IMG/VR virus record: IMGVR_UViG_3300021376_002797
Coordinates: 31,279-95,278 of that record
Length of the DNA: 64,000 nt
Origin: a virus
Reading direction: 5' to 3' (one strand)
Both the position numbers and the translations under genes were made by a program. Positions 1,504 to 34,079 of the stretch are shown here, piece after piece (position 1 is the stretch's first letter; each line of letters starts with the position of its first letter). The notes under the pieces are model-generated. The model was not told the DNA's origin. It worked only from the letters and a program-made list of their open reading frames with translations, and ran no database searches.

Positions 1504-3777
1504 TTATTGATTTATAATTTTTTCTATTTCCGAAATGACCATTTCGGAAGTTATTTCTTTAGTACACTCAAATTGTCTATCAGTCCCTTTATGGTAAGGG
1601 CACCAATTCCAATCTCCGGCATTTAGTTTTTCTTTATTAAAACAACCGTGACAAACGTTTTCATTAATAACCCTGTGACAATTTGATGACATTTCTGCAA
1701 ACTTTTCACTAAAACCTGAAATTAACACTACAGGTAAGTCACATGCCCAAGCCAACCATGATAGTCCTGAACCTAAACCAATGAAGAATTCACACGATGG
1801 AAAATCCTCAATAAGTTCTTCTAACTTGTTACCTTTAAATTTAGTTGTACCCATCGGGTAAAAATTATCCATATAACCATCTTCTTCTTTGGAATAAACC
1901 ATGACTTCGTAACCAAGATTTCTTAAATAATTTACCACTTCTTGCCAACCACTTGGGTTATTCCAATATTTTGCCTGTGTTGTAGATTGCATACCTATAC
2001 CTACCTTTTTCTTTTTTGGTGCTTTACTTTTTTTTACGAGTGGTTTAACCTCATTATATTCCAAACCTAAAATATCAGAGGCTGTCTGTTGTAAAGGAAT
2101 ACTTTTAAAATCATTTGGGTGTAAGTTTTTGTTATAGTAATCACCATCATAGAACCAACCAATTCTATATATCGCATAAATATTATGAACCGACTCACCT
2201 GGATTAACAAACTTTATGTGTGGATATTGATCAATAAAAAGATGGTTCAAAAATGTCGAAACTATTAATTCACAGTTATGTTTTTTTCTAAATTCATCAA
2301 CATAAGGTATCCAAGCTAGCGAGTCACCTAAAGCAGAAGATTCAAAAGTTATCAAAACTCTTTGACCGGCAAGGTCTAAATCATATTCAAACCTATCTTC
2401 GTCATTCTCAGCAATTATTTTCCACGGAACAAAATACTGAAGACTTGTTTTAGCCCAGGTATTATTTTGTAAAGTCAAATTATAAACTACTTTTTGATTT
2501 TCAGTATCAATAAACTTAACATCAAAATCTTTTAGGGTATCTTTAATTTCTAAAAACGCGCCATCGTGAAACAATACTGAAAATTTTGGCTTAAGTTTTT
2601 TTATAGATTTGTTTGAGTTTATGTTATTATAAAAATCAACTAATTTATCTTTAAATTTAGCCTCATCATTTACTCCTACTTCTGTTCTATAGATTATTTT
2701 ATTTATGTTATCAGCAATATCACACTCTTTTACACAGTGAAATAATAGTATATCATCCTTATCAAACGGAATATGAGATTGGCTAAAATGACCCAATCCC
2801 CAATCATTCATATCAAGTAGAAAGTCTCCTGTTAAATTTGGATGTTGATAGAAAAAATTAACATCTTTTTCATTTCTAACATTCAGACCAACAGTAACAA
2901 GGTTTGGTGGCATTTTATGTTTCCAAAGTAGACAATTTAATAAAAGCTCATCGTGCAGAAACTCTGTTTTTCTAATTACTTGTATCTCATCAGAAAAACA
3001 TATTTGTTTCCATTCCCTAAACAGCTCTAAGTGAGTATGGTTGAATATAACTAAAAATGTTATACCATTAGGATAAGGTTGTTTGAAATTTTCTTGTTGA
3101 AATCCCATAAACTCAGAGACTTGTGGCCCTGGAATATACATACCATTAGTAATTACATAATTCCATCTTTGTTTTTGTATTATTGGACCTTCTGTAATAT
3201 GAGGAATATCAAATAACGAATCTATATTAGGTCTAACTAAAATATCGGAATCAATAAATACTGCTTTTTGAACCCCTCTCTCAATCGAATCAATAAAACA
3301 AGGAGGTTTCATAAACTGCATATACTGTGGATCCGACTCACCGTCAAAGTCTAATCTAATATTAGTAAGATTGGTAGATTTAATCCCACTATCATAATTT
3401 ATGTTATAATGAATTATTGGGATATTTGAATATCTTTCCAAACCATCAATCAATTTTTGAGTAATCCCCTCATACTTATCATTTGATATTAGTATATAAG
3501 CCTTTTCAATACCAATTGAAACATAATCATCTATCACCTTTACACCATTTTCATATACTCTTAAGTTCATTTTATTTTCTAAATCAACAGAATGAAATGG
3601 TGTATAGTTTAAGTCAATTATAATTTCTTGATTTGATTCAAAAGTATAATCATTAAATATTTTACTTTGATATGAAATACTTGTTAAAACCACTTTAGAT
3701 TTTACCGAATAACTTCTTAAATTAGTAATGGAAAGTTTATTATCTACTAATCTATATTTATATAACTTGCTCTGCAT
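1504..3777 (-). CDS. multidomain glycosyltransferase: GT-A-like domain fused to an Aah/TibC-type autotransporter O-heptosyltransferase domain
   Basis: FIDSDIL DxD motif; C-terminal SSALGDSLAW, FIGLGSGLSWLAW, VVLISGFS and four Cys (VCHGCFN..WCP..FECTK) like the Fe-binding site of the TibC family. ATG at 3777. Confidence 0.8.
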   Translation of the reverse strand: MQSKLYKYRLVDNKLSITNLRSYSVKSKVVLTSISYQSKIFNDYTFESNQEIIIDLNYTPFHSVDLENKMNLRVYENGVKVIDDYVSIGIEKAYILISNDKYEGITQKLIDGLERYSNIPIIHYNINYDSGIKSTNLTNIRLDFDGESDPQYMQFMKPPCFIDSIERGVQKAVFIDSDILVRPNIDSLFDIPHITEGPIIQKQRWNYVITNGMYIPGPQVSEFMGFQQENFKQPYPNGITFLVIFNHTHLELFREWKQICFSDEIQVIRKTEFLHDELLLNCLLWKHKMPPNLVTVGLNVRNEKDVNFFYQHPNLTGDFLLDMNDWGLGHFSQSHIPFDKDDILLFHCVKECDIADNINKIIYRTEVGVNDEAKFKDKLVDFYNNINSNKSIKKLKPKFSVLFHDGAFLEIKDTLKDFDVKFIDTENQKVVYNLTLQNNTWAKTSLQYFVPWKIIAENDEDRFEYDLDLAGQRVLITFESSALGDSLAWIPYVDEFRKKHNCELIVSTFLNHLFIDQYPHIKFVNPGESVHNIYAIYRIGWFYDGDYYNKNLHPNDFKSIPLQQTASDILGLEYNEVKPLVKKSKAPKKKKVGIGMQSTTQAKYWNNPSGWQEVVNYLRNLGYEVMVYSKEEDGYMDNFYPMGTTKFKGNKLEELIEDFPSCEFFIGLGSGLSWLAWACDLPVVLISGFSEKFAEMSSNCHRVINENVCHGCFNKEKLNAGDWNWCPYHKGTDRQFECTKEITSEMVISEIEKIINQ

Positions 3778-16397: not shown

Positions 16398-18614
16398 CTA
16401 TTTTTTACGTTTTGTTGGTTTTTTTATTTTAACTTCAGTTTTTTTATCTTTTTCGTTATATGATAAAATGAATTTTGAACCTTTTTCAGGGTTGTCACTA
16501 ATTACTTTATCAGTAACCGCATCATCGACCCACTTTTGAATGGTTCTTTTCAATATACGAGCACCGAATCTAGTGTCAGTACCAACACCTATAATGTGTT
16601 TTTTTAATGTCTCATCGACCTCCAATTCAAAATCAATTAAAGAAACTCTTTCATACACTTTTTCAAGTTCCAAATCAACAATTTTTAATAGGTCGGTCTC
16701 ATTAAGATCTTTAAAATAAATAATTTCATCAAACCTATTTATAAATTCAGGTGCAAACTTTTTAAATAATTCTTTTTCTAATAGAGATTTTATCTCCTCT
16801 TCCTTTTTCTCAACTTTTGAATTTGTTGCAAATCCAACACCTGTACCAAAATCTTGAACTATCTTTGTTCCAACATTAGATGTCATTAAAATAATACAGT
16901 TTTTGAAATTGATTTTTCTTCCGTGACCATCAGTTAAAAATCCTTCATCTAACATTTGTAAAAATACGTTAAATATTTCAGGATGTGCCTTTTCAATCTC
17001 ATCTAACAAAATAACAGAATATGGTTTGTTTTTAATTTTATTTAAAAATGGTGATCCATCTTCATACCCAACATAGCCTGGTGATGTTCCTGTGAGTTTT
17101 GATGTTGCAATCTTATCTGAAAATTCACTCATATCTAATCTAATAAGTGCGTCTTCAGTATTAAACATATGTTTCGCTAATTGCTTAGCCAACTCAGTTT
17201 TACCAACACCTGAATTACCAATTAATAATCCACTAAATATTGGTTTTTTAGGGTCATTTAATCCGACCTTATTTCTTTGTATTGCTTTTGATATTTTTGC
17301 AACTGCATCATCTTGACCAATAACTTTTGTTGATAGCGTATCTTTGAGTGTTTTTAATTGTTCTGTCTCATCTGTTGATATTTTTGATATTGGTATTTTT
17401 GTAATAAGTGACGCGACATCATATACAATATCTTCTGTAACTTCTCTTTTGAATAAATTTCTATTTTTTTCAAATTCCGCCTTTTCTCTTTCTAAATCAT
17501 TCAAAACTTTTCTTTCCTTATCTCTAAGATTTGCCGCTTCCTCGTATCTTTGACTGTTTATTACTATAACCTTTTCTTCTTTGATTTCTTGAGCCTGTCT
17601 TTTTAAATCTTCAATAATTTCAGGTAATTTTATTTCAACTTGTGATCTAGCTCCAACCTCATCAATAATATCAAACGCCTTATCAGGAAACTCTCTATCT
17701 GTGATGTAACGGTCCGCTAACTCAACACATAGTTTTAATATATCATCACTATAAGTTACTTTATGGTGATCTTCATATCTATCTTTTGAATTTTGAAGTA
17801 TCTGTAAGGTCTCTTCTTTTGTTGAAGGGTCCACCATTACTTTTTGGAATCTCCTTTCAAGTGCACCATCTTTTTCAATATTTTTTCTATATTCTTCTAA
17901 AGTAGTTGCACCAATACATTGTAGTTCTCCTCTTGAAAGTGCAGGTTTAAATATATTTGAAGCATCCATCGATCCTGAGGCATTTCCCGCACCAATCATT
18001 GTATGGATTTCATCAATAAAAATTATAATATCGGGGTTATTGTATAATTCTTCCATAATCACTTTCATTCTTTCTTCAAATTGTCCTCTATATTTTGTTC
18101 CAGCAACAATTGATGTCATATCTAATGAAACAATCCTTTTACCTGATAAATTTTGAGGACAATCACCCTCAAATATTTTCTTTGCTAAACCTTCAACAAT
18201 TGCCGTTTTACCACAGTTATGTGAAACCACACCATTTGATATGTATTTTCTTTCATTATCTAACACCTCAAGATCAAAAGTATTATGAACACCAATCTCT
18301 TCTTTCTCAATAACCTCATGTAGGTTATTATCTTCAAAATAAATTGAGTTTCCAACATTTAAATTTTTTAATCTTAACCAATATGAATCATTCATAAATT
18401 CAACAAAATCATTATCACTTGTTTGCCCAACTTCAACTAAATGGTCTTCAGATCCTGAAAGTTCAGACCCGTTTGATAGTTTTATTTTAAAACAATTTTT
18501 ATTTTGTTTTTTATATAAATTACCAACAAGTTTATAACCCGACGGAGTTTTAATTTTGTATGTCCCACCTTCGTTTTTTACAAGGTTAAAAAATTCTTCA
18601 ATTTTAATTTTCAT
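16398..18614 (-). CDS. clpC: ClpC-type AAA+ ATPase C-terminal extein preceded by split intein C-fragment (133 aa)
   Basis: IntC: SEDH block B, FDLEV block F, VVSHN|C splice junction at 18216/18215. Extein: CGKTAIVEGLA, FIDEIH, UVR M-domain, GNSGVGKT, LLDEIEKAH, FGAR. Confidence 0.92.
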   Translation of the reverse strand: MKIKIEEFFNLVKNEGGTYKIKTPSGYKLVGNLYKKQNKNCFKIKLSNGSELSGSEDHLVEVGQTSDNDFVEFMNDSYWLRLKNLNVGNSIYFEDNNLHEVIEKEEIGVHNTFDLEVLDNERKYISNGVVSHNCGKTAIVEGLAKKIFEGDCPQNLSGKRIVSLDMTSIVAGTKYRGQFEERMKVIMEELYNNPDIIIFIDEIHTMIGAGNASGSMDASNIFKPALSRGELQCIGATTLEEYRKNIEKDGALERRFQKVMVDPSTKEETLQILQNSKDRYEDHHKVTYSDDILKLCVELADRYITDREFPDKAFDIIDEVGARSQVEIKLPEIIEDLKRQAQEIKEEKVIVINSQRYEEAANLRDKERKVLNDLEREKAEFEKNRNLFKREVTEDIVYDVASLITKIPISKISTDETEQLKTLKDTLSTKVIGQDDAVAKISKAIQRNKVGLNDPKKPIFSGLLIGNSGVGKTELAKQLAKHMFNTEDALIRLDMSEFSDKIATSKLTGTSPGYVGYEDGSPFLNKIKNKPYSVILLDEIEKAHPEIFNVFLQMLDEGFLTDGHGRKINFKNCIILMTSNVGTKIVQDFGTGVGFATNSKVEKKEEEIKSLLEKELFKKFAPEFINRFDEIIYFKDLNETDLLKIVDLELEKVYERVSLIDFELEVDETLKKHIIGVGTDTRFGARILKRTIQKWVDDAVTDKVISDNPEKGSKFILSYNEKDKKTEVKIKKPTKRKK

Positions 18615-18713
18615 ATTTTTTATTTAATTTTTTTTATTTCACATAGTTTCAATATTGTGACTATCTGCGTCAGAAACTTTTTCAATTTCAATCCAAGTAT
18701 CGCCTAAAACACA
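18216..18713 (-). mobile_element. naturally split intein, atypical split (IntN 24 aa at 18713-18642; IntC 133 aa at 18614-18216), no endonuclease
   Basis: GEPG|[12 protein letters not shown]...ETM* and MKIKIEE...SHN|CGKT; ligation restores Walker A GEPGCGKT. Confidence 0.9.
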
Positions 18714-18932
18714 ACCTGGTTCACCTAATATAATAGGGTTATTTTTCTTTCTTCTTGAAAGGATTTGTGCAATTCTATTAATCTCATTTTCTCTACCTAC
18801 AACAGGATCTAATTTTCCTTCTTCAGCTAGTTTTATAAGGTCTCTTGAAAAGTTATCTAAAACAGGGGTTTTAGTTTTTGTTTCTGTTTGTTTATTTTTT
18901 GATTTTTCCATATCGTCAAATGATTCAATCAT
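18639..18932 (-). CDS. clpC: ClpC N-extein (start of AAA1, no Clp N-domain) fused to split intein N-fragment
   Basis: [46 protein letters not shown] then CVLGDTWI. Confidence 0.9.
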
Positions 18933-19129: not shown

Positions 19130-19495
19130 ATGTTTAGTAGAAATTTTGAAAAATTATTTAATGAACTATGGTCATCAGATCCATTTTTTAATGGTGATAA
19201 TTGGGAAAGAAAAAACTATAAGTCCGAAGATGGTAGTATTTCATTTACTTACATTACAAACAAACGAGGAGGACTGAATAAACAAGATGAAATATCATTA
19301 TTAAAACAAAAACTTGATATTGCAGTTGATGAACAAAATTTTGAGGAGGCGGTAGAACTCAGAGACAAAATTAAAAATTTAGAGAAAAATAAAGAAGAAT
19401 TTACAAAACTTAATAAAGAACTAGATGAATGTTTAAAAAAACAAGATTTTGAAAATGCAATCAAATTAAGAGATAAAATTAGAAGTTTAAAATAA
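19130..19495 (+). CDS. tandem UVR (UvrB/UvrC motif) protein, McsA-like candidate Clp adaptor
   Basis: AVDEQNFEEAVELRDKI and CLKKQDFENAIKLRDKI. Confidence 0.8.
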   Translation: MFSRNFEKLFNELWSSDPFFNGDNWERKNYKSEDGSISFTYITNKRGGLNKQDEISLLKQKLDIAVDEQNFEEAVELRDKIKNLEKNKEEFTKLNKELDECLKKQDFENAIKLRDKIRSLK

Positions 19496-24234: not shown

Positions 24235-26010
24235 ATGTCTTTATCAAGGGAACAAGCCTTATTGGAATACGCCAAATGTGTAAATGATACTCCTTACGCA
24301 CTTAAAACATATTTACAAACTTACGACAATACACAATCAAAATATGTCCCGTTAGAATTATTTATCGACCAAGTTACGTTAGTAAAGGATTATGATAGTT
24401 ACGAAGAGAACATCGCATTAAAATACCGTCAGGCTGGTGTTTCTACAGTAACATCAGCATGGGCATCAAAGAGGTTGGTATTTGCTAAAAAAGAAAAACC
24501 TGAAAAAATCCTGATAATTGCAAACAAAATGGACACTGCCGTTGAGATGGCAAATAAAGTAAGAGCGTTTGTAGATCAATGGCCGAAATGGATGGGTGTT
24601 GGTTTTTCTGTTGAAAAAAACTCACAAAGACATTTTAAACTAACAAACGGTTGTGAAGTGAAGGCGGTTGCAACATCAAAAGACGCTTTACGTGGTTATA
24701 CACCAACTATATTGATATTTGATGAGGCGGCATATATTAATGCCGACGAAGACTTTTGGTCTGCATGTATGGCGTCTCTTTCAACCGGAGGTAAAGTTAT
24801 AGTAATATCAACACCAAATGGATTCGACCCAATTTATTATTCTATATATAGTCAGTCTGTTAAAGGTATGAATGACTTTAGAATTACTGAAATGTATTGG
24901 TTTAGGGATCCTAGATATTCTAAAGATTTAAAACTCATTAAATGTCGTGATATTGTGCATTATATGTTAAATAGGGCCGACTATAAAGATGAAGAAATAA
25001 CCATTGATTATGGTAACATTAAAGTTAATGAAAGAAACTTTGAAGAAATTAAACAAAAAATAGAAAATGGTGGGTATAAGGCTTATAGTTCATGGTTTGA
25101 GGCCATGGCTAAAAAGTTAAAATTTGATAGAAGGAAAATATCACAAGAACTTGAATGTAACTTCTTAGGTTCAGGAGATAATGTAATTCCTGCAGAAACT
25201 ATGAAAAAAATTAAAGATAAACATATTAAAGAACCTGAAAATAAATTTATGGGTGGAGTTCTATGGCAATGGAAAGAACCTGTTGCCGATCACCGATATA
25301 TAATGGGTATGGACGTTTCACGAGGCGATAGTGAAGATTTTACAACATTTACTATTATTGATTTTGATGAAAGAGAACAGGTTTTGGAATATTTAGGAAA
25401 GGTTCCACCTGATGTTGTGGCAGAAATTGCATATAAATGGGCAACCATGTATAATGCATTTATTGTGACCGATATTACAGGAGGTATGGGTGTTGCAACA
25501 TCAAGAAAACTACAAGAACTAGGATATAAAAATTTATATGTCGATGGAGTGAATCCCACAGATAAATGGAAATGGGACCCTAAAGCAAACGAAAAGATAC
25601 CAGGAATTAATTTTAATTCCAAAAGAGTTCAAATTGTTGCGGCATTTGAAGAAGCGTTAAGACACGATTTTGGTGTTAGGTCTCAAAGATTATATAATGA
25701 ATTAAACACATTTGTTTATGTAAACGGTAGGCCTGATCACCAAAAAGGGCAACACGATGATTTGATTATGTCATTAGCAATGGCTTTATATGTTGCAGAA
25801 ACATCTTTTTCAAAATTAGAAAAAGCAACGGAACACGCAAAGGCAATGATTGATTCGTGGACAACGGATAAAAATGAATATAAAGATTCCTCGGCCAATT
25901 TTAATCCCGGTTTACCTGTTATGACAGGATTACACGAATACTCTAGTGGTCAGGTTAGTAAAAGTGATTATGAAAAGTATTTATGGTTATTCGGAGGAAA
26001 AAGAGTTTAG
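24235..26010 (+). CDS. terminase large subunit (T4 gp17-like)
   Basis: KYRQAGVST Walker A-like, IFDEAA Walker B, STPNG, GMDVSRG and HDDLIM nuclease motifs. Confidence 0.95.
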   Translation: MSLSREQALLEYAKCVNDTPYALKTYLQTYDNTQSKYVPLELFIDQVTLVKDYDSYEENIALKYRQAGVSTVTSAWASKRLVFAKKEKPEKILIIANKMDTAVEMANKVRAFVDQWPKWMGVGFSVEKNSQRHFKLTNGCEVKAVATSKDALRGYTPTILIFDEAAYINADEDFWSACMASLSTGGKVIVISTPNGFDPIYYSIYSQSVKGMNDFRITEMYWFRDPRYSKDLKLIKCRDIVHYMLNRADYKDEEITIDYGNIKVNERNFEEIKQKIENGGYKAYSSWFEAMAKKLKFDRRKISQELECNFLGSGDNVIPAETMKKIKDKHIKEPENKFMGGVLWQWKEPVADHRYIMGMDVSRGDSEDFTTFTIIDFDEREQVLEYLGKVPPDVVAEIAYKWATMYNAFIVTDITGGMGVATSRKLQELGYKNLYVDGVNPTDKWKWDPKANEKIPGINFNSKRVQIVAAFEEALRHDFGVRSQRLYNELNTFVYVNGRPDHQKGQHDDLIMSLAMALYVAETSFSKLEKATEHAKAMIDSWTTDKNEYKDSSANFNPGLPVMTGLHEYSSGQVSKSDYEKYLWLFGGKRV

Positions 26011-26048: not shown

Positions 26049-27842
26049 ATGGCACAAGAAAAATATACGGTTTGGCAAAGGTTAGGTAGAGTGTTCGGTC
26101 CTAATTCAACAATGGACCAACAACCACCTGTTTTTAAATTCGATAAAAAAGAATTATTAAAAACAACAAACAAGCAAGAATATGAAACTGAAAAATTACA
26201 GTCTCAACAAACAATGTACATTGGTAAGCAATGGCAAAAAGTAGAAAGTAATTTATATCAACAAGCGGTTTATTATGAACCAACAAGAATGGCGTCATAT
26301 TATGATTATGAATCTATGGAGTATACTCCTGAGATTTCTGCCGCTTTGGATGTATATGCTGAAGAATCGACTACACCTGACCAAGATGGTTATATTTTAA
26401 GAGTCTATTCAGAATCGAAAAGAATCAAACAAGTGTTAACAGATCTTTTTACAAATAAGTTAGATATAAACACTAATTTACCTATGTGGATAAGAAACAC
26501 ATGTAAATTCGGTGATAATTTTATTTATTTAAAATTGGACCCTGAAAATGGTGTTGTAGGTTGTCAACAATTACCAAATATCCAAATAGAAAGATTGGAA
26601 AAGGGTATGAGATTCCAGCCCGACAAGTATTCACAAGAAATGGAAAATGATGCGTTAAAATTTGTTTGGAAAGAAAAAAACATGGAATTCAACACATGGG
26701 AAATTGGCCATTTTAGAATTTTAGGTGACGATAGAAAATTACCATACGGAACTTCAATGTTAGAAAAAGCGAGACGTATTTGGAAACAATTACTTCTATG
26801 TGAAGATGCCATGTTAATATATCGTTTATCGAGAGCACCTGAAAGAAGAGTTTTTAAAGTATTTGTTGGTAATATGGATGACAAAGATGTTGATGCATAC
26901 GTACAAAAAGTTGCAAGTAAATTTAAAAGAGACCAAATATTAGATTCAAAGACAGGTAATGTGGATATGAGATATAATCAAATGGCGGTTGACCAAGATT
27001 ATTTTATTCCTGTTAGAGATCCAGCAGCATCAAATCCTATAGAAACATTGGCAGGTGCTGCAAACATGGCAGAAATTGCAGATATCGAATATATTCAAAA
27101 GAAATTAGTTACAGCATTAAGAATACCTAAGGCTTATTTAGGTTTTGAAGAAGCGGTTGGTGATGGTAAAAATTTATCATTATTAGATATTAGATTTGCA
27201 AGAACAATTAATAGAATACAAAAATCTATGATTGCAGAATTAAATAAAATTGCAATTATACATTTATTTTTATTAGGATTTGAAGATGAATTAACAAACT
27301 TTACATTATCATTAAATAACCCATCCAAACAAGGTGAATTATTGTCATTAGAGATTTGGAAAGAAAAAATAACACTATATAAAGATGCGACCGCAGAGAT
27401 TGCAAAATCATTATCACCTGTTTCAGCATCTTGGGCTAAAAAACATATATTAGGATTTTCGGATGAAGAAATCAGATTAGATGTTCAACAACAAAGAGTC
27501 GAGCGAGCAGTTTATGCTGAGTTAGAAAAAACTGCAGAAGTTATTACAAAAACAGGTTTATTTGATAATATCGACAAACTTTATGGTAAAAAAGAGGGTG
27601 AACCTGCGGGAGATGCCGCCGCAGCAGGTGCACCACCTGAAGGAGGGGCACCACCACCACCTGAATCAGGAGAAGAAGCACCACCACCACCTGCAATGCC
27701 AACAGAAAGATTAGTTAGAAAAGATTTAGATTTATTATTAGAAGAAACCTTAATTAGTGGTTCTGACTACATGGATTTATCTAAAGGAAGACTATCTTTG
27801 GACTTAATTGATAAAAAATTGAAAGATTTAATCGATAAGTAA
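26049..27842 (+). CDS. portal protein (T4 gp20-like)
   Basis: EDAMLIYRLSRAPERRVFKV, DYFIPVR, ALRIPKAYL. Confidence 0.95.
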   Translation: MAQEKYTVWQRLGRVFGPNSTMDQQPPVFKFDKKELLKTTNKQEYETEKLQSQQTMYIGKQWQKVESNLYQQAVYYEPTRMASYYDYESMEYTPEISAALDVYAEESTTPDQDGYILRVYSESKRIKQVLTDLFTNKLDINTNLPMWIRNTCKFGDNFIYLKLDPENGVVGCQQLPNIQIERLEKGMRFQPDKYSQEMENDALKFVWKEKNMEFNTWEIGHFRILGDDRKLPYGTSMLEKARRIWKQLLLCEDAMLIYRLSRAPERRVFKVFVGNMDDKDVDAYVQKVASKFKRDQILDSKTGNVDMRYNQMAVDQDYFIPVRDPAASNPIETLAGAANMAEIADIEYIQKKLVTALRIPKAYLGFEEAVGDGKNLSLLDIRFARTINRIQKSMIAELNKIAIIHLFLLGFEDELTNFTLSLNNPSKQGELLSLEIWKEKITLYKDATAEIAKSLSPVSASWAKKHILGFSDEEIRLDVQQQRVERAVYAELEKTAEVITKTGLFDNIDKLYGKKEGEPAGDAAAAGAPPEGGAPPPPESGEEAPPPPAMPTERLVRKDLDLLLEETLISGSDYMDLSKGRLSLDLIDKKLKDLIDK

Positions 27843-32282: not shown

Positions 32283-34079
32283 ATGGGAGCATTATTAGAA
32301 TCAGGTCTTGTTGGTAACATAGGTTTGAAACACCTTAAAGTTATCAAAGAAGATACAATTAACAAATGGGATAGATTAGGATTCCTAGACGGTCTTAAAG
32401 GACACGTTAAAGAGAACATGGCACAATTATATGAAAATCAAGCATCTCACCTAATTAACGAAGCGGCTGCGACTGATAGCTCAGGTTCATTTGAAACTGT
32501 AGTTTTCCCAATCGTAAGACGCGTATTTTCTAAATTATTGGCTAATGATTTAGTATCAGTACAAGCAATGAACTTACCTATCGGTAAATTGTTCTACTTC
32601 GTACCTAAAATTCAAAGTTATCAAGCGGCAGGATCAAACTCTATTGATCATTATCCACCAATCGGCGGACCAACTTCTCCAAATTCAGATCCTACTCAAG
32701 GGTACACTGACGGAAGTAAAAACCTTTATGATAGATTTTACGAAGGAAATGAAGCCGGATTAGATCCTGCAGGTCTTTTCGATTATTCAAAAGGTTCTTA
32801 TACTGCTATTACTTCAACCGCAGTACAAACAGTTGCATGGTCTAACGGTTCTTTAGTACAATCAGGATACACAACAGGTGAATATAGAAAAGTTCTTTTA
32901 GCACTTTCAGGATTTTCTTCAGCAGGTGCTGGAAAACTTATCGGACCTGATGGTCAAGAAATGGATAACGAAGCGTTCCTTTCAGACTTAACTATCAACG
33001 CTGTAAGTTCTGGGGCGTTCTCAGGAGCTGGTTCAGGTAACCTATTATTTAGAGTAGTAACTCAAAAATATGGTAAAGGTATCGTACAATATGGTTCTCA
33101 AGCAACTACAACATGGTCTTCAACAGGTAATGGAGGATCTTATGATGATATTTGTGACCAAGCAGGTATTATCTACTTAGAAGTTGATTTACAAGTTCCT
33201 TGTTCAATCGGAGCAAACTCTTTAGATGGTTACTCAGGTTTAACTACAACTGTCGCTGGTACAACAACTGCAGGTTCTCAATTTGAAGCAACTTATAGAA
33301 GATACAAAGAATTGGAATTTGAAGACAAAATTGGTGAAGTTTCTTTTGACCTTGAGTCAGTTACTGTTTCTGTTACAGAAAGAAAACTAAGAGCGCAATG
33401 GTCACCTGAATTGGCACAAGACGTTTCTGCATTCCATAACATCGACGCTGAGGCTGAATTAACAGCTTTATTGTCTGAACAAGTGGCAGCAGAAATCGAT
33501 AGAGAAATCTTGAGAGACCTTAGAAAAGGAGCAGCTTGGAACCTAAGATGGGATTACAACGGATGGAAAAGAGGTACTGCTTCTAACCCATTAACTCAAT
33601 ACACACAAAAAGATTGGAATCAAACTTTGATTACAGCAATCAACCAAATTTCAGCACAAATCCACAAGTCTACATTAAGAGGTGGAGCTAACTGGATTGT
33701 TGTTTCTTCTGAGATTTCTGCAATCTTTGATGATTTAGAATACTTCCACGTATCTAACGCGTCTCCTGAGCAAGATCAATACAATATGGGTATTGAAAGA
33801 GTTGGTACATTGGCAGGAAGATACCAAGTGTATAGAGACCCTTACTTCCCACCAAATACAGTATTGTTGGGTCACAAAGGTTCTTCATTGTTAGACACAG
33901 GGTACGTTTACGCACCGTATGTTCCTCTACAATTGACACCTACTATGTATAACCCATTCAACTTCACGCCTATCAAAGGTATTATGACCAGATACGCTAA
34001 GAAGATGGTAAATAATCGCTTCTACGGACGAATTACCGTTGATGGTGTTAGAACGTTTGATTTAAGAGAATTGAGATAA
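32283..34079 (+). CDS. major capsid protein (T4 gp23-like)
   Basis: VSVQAMNLPIGKLFY, RKLRAQWSPELAQD, AEIDREIL, YAPYVPL, GIMTRY. Confidence 0.97.
   Translation: MGALLESGLVGNIGLKHLKVIKEDTINKWDRLGFLDGLKGHVKENMAQLYENQASHLINEAAATDSSGSFETVVFPIVRRVFSKLLANDLVSVQAMNLPIGKLFYFVPKIQSYQAAGSNSIDHYPPIGGPTSPNSDPTQGYTDGSKNLYDRFYEGNEAGLDPAGLFDYSKGSYTAITSTAVQTVAWSNGSLVQSGYTTGEYRKVLLALSGFSSAGAGKLIGPDGQEMDNEAFLSDLTINAVSSGAFSGAGSGNLLFRVVTQKYGKGIVQYGSQATTTWSSTGNGGSYDDICDQAGIIYLEVDLQVPCSIGANSLDGYSGLTTTVAGTTTAGSQFEATYRRYKELEFEDKIGEVSFDLESVTVSVTERKLRAQWSPELAQDVSAFHNIDAEAELTALLSEQVAAEIDREILRDLRKGAAWNLRWDYNGWKRGTASNPLTQYTQKDWNQTLITAINQISAQIHKSTLRGGANWIVVSSEISAIFDDLEYFHVSNASPEQDQYNMGIERVGTLAGRYQVYRDPYFPPNTVLLGHKGSSLLDTGYVYAPYVPLQLTPTMYNPFNFTPIKGIMTRYAKKMVNNRFYGRITVDGVRTFDLRELR

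Follow-up and report, generated by a model that had tools for sequence, protein, structure and literature searches.

How does a phage come to carry the gene for a ClpC-type ATPase in two pieces, broken inside the Walker A motif of the D1 module, and could the pieces still yield an intact protein? The question is raised by a 64,000-nt stretch of DNA (here called the window; about 29% GC) that holds phage structural and replication DNA and lies within a 95-kb IMG/VR record, IMGVR_UViG_3300021376_002797, estimated to be 32% complete. In it, the clpC-like ATPase of a large uncultured phage is encoded by two adjacent minus-strand genes. A first-pass annotation had attributed the break to an atypically split intein with an N-terminal fragment (IntN) of 24 residues after GEPG and a C-terminal fragment (IntC) of 133 residues that contains SEDH and ends SHN before CGKT; all of these coordinates and strings were correct when compared with the list of open reading frames (ORFs) and their translations. 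We consider it highly probable that the two genes are expressed together and that the halves assemble and trans-splice, yielding a ClpC-like ATPase of 678 residues in which the D1 P-loop is intact. The locus is laid out as follows.

18639-18932, minus strand: gene 1, 97 residues, consisting of a 73-residue N-extein ending ILGEPG and the 24-residue IntN, then TGA.
18714..18932, minus strand: N-extein, the first 73 ClpC-like residues, spanning the beginning of the D1 module up to the Walker A GEPG, collinear with intein-free alleles.
18642..18713, minus strand: IntN, 24 residues, with Cys1, block A CVLGDT, strand beta2 and an acidic tail with a conserved His.
18639..18641, minus strand: TGA stop codon of gene 1.
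18615..18638, minus strand: spacer, 24 nt, A-rich, containing an in-frame TAA.
16398-18614, minus strand: gene 2, 738 residues, consisting of the 133-residue IntC ending VVSHN and, from CGKT onwards, 605 residues of Clp ATPase in all.
18216..18614, minus strand: IntC, 133 residues, with a strand, helix alpha1 (EEFFNL...), block B SEDH, and blocks F and G ending SHN.
16401..18215, minus strand: C-extein, 605 residues from CGKT that complete D1 and continue through a short M-domain and a D2 module containing a VGF loop to the D2-small domain.
16398..16400, minus strand: stop codon of gene 2.

Both ORFs were intact, each opening with an ATG of its own, and an A-rich leader was present. The two genes share a reading frame (relative frame 0), and the lengths of 24 residues for IntN and 133 for IntC were confirmed by script and by translation.

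The residues of the two halves point to a class 1 intein, with Cys1, the block-B His, the penultimate His, the terminal Asn and a +1 Cys. Cys1 of CVLGDT directly follows GEPG and was conserved across all alleles compared. In an alignment of 40 family members, the catalytic columns (Cys1, block-B Ser and His, block-F Asp, penultimate His, terminal Asn and +1 nucleophile) were invariant or nearly so: the His of block B SEDH and the Asn that closes block G VVSHN ahead of CGKT were invariant, and the block-B Ser and the penultimate His nearly so. IntC scored 17.0 bits against the NCBIfam intein_Cterm model (cut-off 15.6). The match to the NCBIfam intein N-terminal model lay under its cut-off, no intein domain was found on gene 2 with Pfam, and there was no PHROGs family for IntC. 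A search of PDB sequences with IntC matched the inteins gp41-1 (E = 3.7e-6) and VidaL (E = 1.7e-3).

The structure was modelled by translating 18186-18743 with TGA and TAA read as Gly, which joined the halves through a 9-residue linker; this read-through is an artificial modelling device and carries no biological claim. The AlphaFold2 model of the joined halves, built with the 40-sequence alignment, had a predicted local distance difference test score (pLDDT) of 84.6 and a predicted template modelling score (pTM) of 0.80, with disorder confined to the IntN tail and the linker. A Foldseek search with this model gave VidaL (6vgv) as the top match (E = 1e-10, template modelling score 0.88 on the target), followed by gp41-1, DnaB, NrdJ-1 and others; there were 64 PDB matches at E <= 0.001, and the highest-ranked were inteins or BIL domains. 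On this model we are confident that the joined halves are predicted to form a HINT fold.

The splice junction was fixed by alleles that lack the intein. A search of viral contigs with the C-extein gave 80 loci, 75 of which carry one uninterrupted intein-free ORF, the nearest being 98% identical to the window C-extein. Across the junction these alleles read ...ILGEPGCGKTAIVEGL..., with GEPGVGKT in more distant ones and the same MIES... N-terminus, and the site as DNA is ...GGTGAACCAGGT↓TGTGGTAAAAC..., where the arrow marks the insertion point. Because the intein-free alleles read GEPGCGKT through the same point, the product of splicing would be exactly GEPGCGKT, as the first-pass annotation had predicted, and the insertion separates the Gly of the D1 Walker A motif from its variable residue (GEPG↓CGKT). 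Together with the fold model, these alleles bear out its reading of a ClpC-type ATPase gene broken in the D1 Walker A by an atypically split intein. No second copy of the intein was found in the 95-kb record.

The variable Walker A position (window 18213-18215) is Cys, encoded by TGT or TGC, in 66 of the 75 intein-free alleles (L017-L096), and Val in the nine most distant. Cys at the homing site may have been left behind when an intein that once occupied it was precisely lost, or it may be a precondition for invasion.

We then considered where within the intein fold the break falls. Natural atypical splits occur either right after beta2 (S1: VidaL, PolB16) or after alpha1 (S2: AceL-TerL, GOS-TerL) (PMC13014065), and the S1 criterion that we applied was an IntN of only 15-37 residues and a break lying between beta2 and alpha1. 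In the model, the strand at residues 17-24 (intein residues 7-14) belongs to IntN and the helix at residues 48-58 to IntC, which opens with a short strand ahead of helix alpha1 (EEFFNLVKNE), a helix whose codons lie at the beginning of gene 2; IntC residue 2 aligned with residue 25 of the fused VidaL chain. The window intein is thus, in its modelled structure, an atypical split of the S1 type. The S2 type of AceL-TerL and GOS-TerL was rejected, alpha1 being encoded in gene 2 and not in IntN.

The acidic tail of IntN (window 18642-18671) carries the motif S-D/N-x3-H-N/K-I/F-E-x-M, with KV before the S, which was kept across alleles and in members of the family in other host genes (P0025, L130) and was disordered in the model. 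Its role may lie in docking of the halves or in a DNA-level signal for the nuclease gene. The net charge of IntN is -5 and that of the first 50 IntC residues +8, opposite charges that would fit an electrostatically assisted docking of the halves.

The split was not peculiar to the window. Searches of viral contigs with IntC and with a family profile showed that about 30 phage contigs carry the same element in their ClpC genes. At least 15 distinct alleles are represented, and their IntC sequences are 60-83% identical. IntN is nearly always a separate 24-residue ORF after GEPG (18 or 26 residues in three alleles), with the start position of IntC unchanged, and both the 24-residue length and the IntN motif were kept in at least 12 distinct alleles. 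The gap between the halves varied far more among relatives (6, 7, 11, 24, 29, 71, 121, 279, 360, or about 1205-1237 nt), and reading frames differed.

Comparison of the proportions of nonsynonymous and synonymous differences (pN and pS, Nei-Gojobori) across these alleles gave 0.10-0.28 against 0.52-0.78 for IntC, with ratios of roughly 0.05-0.3, and 0.04-0.30 against 0.37-0.79 for IntN; synonymous sites were near saturation in most pairs, so the ratios for the intein halves are rough, and their direction is clear. Codon comparison therefore points to maintenance of both intein halves by purifying selection. The window exteins were compared in the same way with the five nearest intein-free alleles, which gave ratios of nonsynonymous to synonymous substitution rates (dN/dS) of 0.02-0.04 for the C-extein and 0.04-0.10 for the N-extein, at pS of 0.30-0.55.

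In many of the relatives the gap is occupied by a gene, and it is in these alleles that it measures about 1205-1237 nt. A 390-residue ORF on the same strand fills it in L004, L007-10, L013-16, L112, L113, L118 and L147, and L122 and L129 have gaps of nuclease-gene size, a judgement made on size only. The ORF is in pieces in L005, reduced to a 360-nt remnant in L011, and gone in the window and in L002, L012, L098, L111, L119 and L120. Database homologues of this ORF, of about 390 residues, were named very-short-patch-repair endonuclease or carried PF04480 or PF18741. Pfam gave no match on the ORF itself, PHROGs gave a weak 'Holliday junction resolvase' match (E = 4.8e-5), and a profile search of PDB sequences returned only T7 endonuclease I (E = 0.1). 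Its AlphaFold2 model had a pLDDT of 87.6, and no Foldseek match to the complete model reached E < 0.001 (E = 0.3, at a probability of 0.99). The C-terminal domain (residues 275-390) was best matched in VIA-align by the I-Bth0305I catalytic domain (3r3p; Z 8.6, root-mean-square deviation 3.7 over 88 residues), followed by Vsr (1cw0, Z 7.9) and the DUF559-like 3hrl (Z 7.9), Z values that are middling. The homologue annotations and VIA-align Z scores suggest that the gap ORF is a candidate Vsr/I-Bth0305I-like free-standing nuclease.

Other states of the site were also seen. L105 (2530-2985) carries an unsplit mini-intein version of the same ClpC intein, which reads ...EKISDK-ICQ-KIKIKDFF... and has no conserved IntN tail; it may be either the ancestral state or a re-fusion. 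In L130 (about 2501-3106), where a family member sits in another ATPase, a nuclease remnant (PDF...VEVK) is fused in frame at the same point. In P0010, P0025, P0039 and L130, all members in other ATPases, a single ORF encodes both IntN and IntC with extra residues bridging them; in P0039 a Cys-rich NUMOD-like stretch is fused ahead of IntC. These four look like snapshots of a nuclease merging into an intein.

In a maximum-likelihood tree of the C-extein (quick search), intein-bearing alleles were scattered, with the well-supported branches requiring at least four changes, and the window was nested among three intein-free alleles with 96% support. Such a scattered distribution is expected of a homing element with gains and losses. 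The comparison with related phages that the first-pass annotation had recommended, a search for contiguous or intein-free alleles, thus produced 75 intein-free loci and one unsplit relative (L105).

Taken together, these findings suggest the following course of events. The two genes, being adjacent, are probably co-transcribed. No terminator-like site was found on the coding strand between the halves; a scan for sigma-70 promoters gave 22 sites against 19.7 expected in shuffled sequence, no better, and was uninformative on transcription. The acidic IntN would dock on the basic N-terminal part of IntC, completing the HINT fold, and the assembled intein would then trans-splice the exteins into the 678-residue ClpC-like protein with its intact P-loop. 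Because it is patchy among intein-free alleles and accompanied by a candidate nuclease gene in relatives, the element is probably a selfish homing element of the 'fractured gene' type, the nuclease gene of which appears to have been deleted in this phage. The split intein of the window would no longer be able to home by a nuclease of its own and would still be needed to make ClpC.

Several points weigh against this reading. The case for splicing is entirely computational, and the structure was modelled on an artificially joined chain. Near-saturation of synonymous sites blurs the selection estimates for the intein halves. The closest intein-bearing relative found has an IntC only 82-83% identical to that of the window. 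No ClpP gene was found in the 95-kb record, at its estimated 32% completeness. Finally, the nuclease-less allele of the window could in principle be on its way to decay.

This last point leads to an explanation in which the locus is a decaying pseudogene: after the intein had fractured and the nuclease had gone, splicing of the halves ceased and the phage came to dispense with ClpC. The absence of the nuclease from the window, its decay in relatives (the fragments in L005 and the remnant in L011) and the dominance of intein-free alleles (75, against 20 intein-bearing rows, among classified loci) are all in keeping with such a history. It is difficult to reconcile with two intact ORFs, their own ATG codons and A-rich leader, and a full set of catalytic residues, or with purifying selection on both intein halves across lineages. 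Nuclease-less split alleles also recur in distinct lineages (the window and the six loci listed above). Moreover, the dN/dS of 0.02-0.10 between the window exteins and their nearest relatives, reached despite substantial synonymous divergence, is unlike that of a dead gene, which argues that the ClpC gene of the window is not dead. We therefore regard decay as improbable.

The first-pass annotation had also raised the possibility that splicing acts as a regulatory switch, with conditional trans-splicing, either redox-dependent through Cys1 and Cys+1 or a matter of timing, controlling ClpC post-translationally. With the insertion in the catalytic P-loop, the unspliced halves would have no active D1, given the role of Walker A; a disulphide between Cys1 and Cys+1 is possible in principle; and the conserved IntN tail is unexplained. 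Separate expression of halves that lie 24 nt apart with no terminator-like site between them is unlikely, however, closely related phages do without the intein altogether, and its distribution is patchy. The candidate homing nuclease in relatives would account for the presence of the element without benefit to the phage, and the same intein is unsplit in L105. The proposal of a switch was thus unsupported, and we think it very unlikely to be correct.

The shared frame of the window halves would suit an error of assembly or sequencing, or one continuous ORF in which a stop codon is recoded or a frameshift occurs. Such explanations have next to no chance of being correct, as the first-pass annotation had argued from the stops, since two different in-frame stops (TGA and TAA) separate the halves, the window genes read normally with table 11, and relatives from independent metagenomes and assemblies have other frames and gaps of 6 to about 1240 nt (6-1237 nt as measured), often with a whole gene between.

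We next asked what kind of ATPase trans-splicing would restore. The C-extein carried the Pfam domains AAA, AAA_lid_9, AAA_2 and ClpB_D2-small, and the NCBIfam ClpB, ClpA and ClpK models matched residues 9-74 of the N-extein; every score against NCBIfam equivalog models was below its cut-off. The C-extein aligned in one stretch, short M-domain included, to S. aureus ClpC (6em9, E = 9e-176), whereas ClpB required two stretches. ClpC is a class I Hsp100 unfoldase, with two AAA+ modules and a short M-domain, that partners ClpP. The D2 GVGF of the window aligned with the FAGF loop of S. aureus ClpC, the loop by which this family docks ClpP. No Clp_N domain was matched with Pfam or NCBIfam, and the N-extein begins about 20 residues ahead of D1. 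By these alignments the host protein is best described as ClpC-like and lacking the N-domain, not as a full ClpC.

Divergent from clpC, at window 19130-19495 on the plus strand, lies a gene for a 121-residue protein with two EEAVELRDKIK-like (UVR-like) repeats and no PHROG match; in L004, L007 and L013 a similar gene precedes clpC on the other strand. The product could be a ClpC partner. ARAGORN found no tRNA or tmRNA gene across the window (1-64000). Structural genes identified with PHROGs lie further along the window.

24235-26010, plus strand: terminase large subunit.
26049-27842, plus strand: portal.
32283-34079, plus strand: major head protein.

Beyond ClpC, a HMMER search with IntC against 1.84 billion representative proteins (clusters at 50% identity) gave 76 matches, 57 of which are covered by our family table. 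In 45 of these 57, the start of IntC falls no later than ORF residue 30; with IntC so near the ORF start, these proteins would also be split. In nearly all 57 the extein resumes as (C/T/S)GK(S/T), which places the family at a single P-loop position, G↓xGK(S/T), across a wide range of unrelated ATPases. Searches of viral contigs with two distant family members (P0060 and P0014) found no related loci. This kind of element is common in metagenomes. We tentatively propose, as a possibility that falls well short of the case for splicing, that the window intein is one member of a large and apparently uncatalogued clade of naturally split inteins of the S1 type. The clade appears to be mobilised by Vsr-like free-standing nucleases, and the acidic, His-containing IntN tail, which is missing in the unsplit allele, could be a dedicated association module that enables so short an IntN to work in trans. 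If this is true, the clade would offer a ready panel of natural short-IntN inteins, and a natural series of a nuclease breaking, and re-fusing into, an intein.

Short-IntN split inteins are sought for protein semisynthesis and labelling, and few natural ones have an IntN that is short enough to be made by peptide synthesis, namely VidaL, PolB16 OarG, AceL-TerL and GOS-TerL (PMC13014065). The window intein adds a 24-residue, Cys-dependent example of the S1 type whose +1 context, CGK, is a common P-loop motif, and it is, as the first-pass annotation suggested, a reasonable candidate for a protein-ligation tool. In the open-access literature, we found no report of an intein in ClpC, ClpB or any other Clp/Hsp100 ATPase. 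The locus and its relatives also form an allele series at a single site, namely empty, occupied by an unsplit mini-intein, and split with the candidate nuclease gene intact, decaying or absent. The series is unusually complete and captures both the homing cycle and the route to split inteins that Dassa et al. 2009 put forward (PMC2677866).

Among known systems, VidaL (6vgv/6vgw) was the best structural match and a significant sequence match. It is likewise a Cys-dependent class 1 intein broken after beta2 and before alpha1, and it is of phage-like metagenomic origin. The two are only about 21% identical and sit in different host proteins, ClpC here and another in VidaL. The VidaL IntN has 16 residues against 24 here, the difference arising because a tail of about 10 residues, acidic and with a conserved His, follows beta2 in the window intein; its IntC also has an insertion of about 13 residues after block B that is absent from most family members. 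Among solved structures, gp41-1 (6qaz), which also comes from a fractured phage gene, gave the strongest sequence match and ranked second by fold. Its split is of the canonical kind, IntN being long and IntC short.

The first-pass annotation had turned instead to AceL-TerL for comparison, and part of that comparison stands. AceL-TerL and GOS-TerL resemble the window intein in being Cys-dependent and of phage origin and in pairing a long IntC with a short IntN, of 25 residues in their case and 24 in the window, but they are split after alpha1 (PMC13014065) and located in terminase, not in a Clp ATPase. With alpha1 in IntC, the window intein is split as VidaL is, which makes VidaL, not AceL-TerL, its nearest known relative.

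An atypically split intein in a fractured gene is itself a known type of element. Fractured genes, as described by Dassa et al. 2009, hold a split intein with a free-standing Vsr-like nuclease between its halves and occur mainly in phage; some loci lack the nuclease or the intein, and one exception has a different break point (PMC2677866). The present locus agrees with them in that a phage enzyme gene is broken by a split intein and relatives carry a candidate Vsr-like free-standing nuclease gene between the halves. It differs in that the window has only a 24-nt spacer and no nuclease gene, and in that the break is at the S1 site and not in the usual endonuclease-insertion region; Clp is unmentioned in the text of that paper (PMC2677866). 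By its gene arrangement, the window is a nuclease-less derivative or variant of a fractured gene. With respect to the insertion site, the Walker A motif of P-loop ATPases is the commonest kind of intein site, the classic point being GK↓T, between the invariant Lys and Thr (PMC5050341). The window intein resembles classic P-loop inteins such as that of mycobacteriophage TerL1-a (PMC5050341) in lying inside this motif, and differs from them in its point of insertion, G↓xGKT, which is two residues earlier and places the nucleophile at the variable position.

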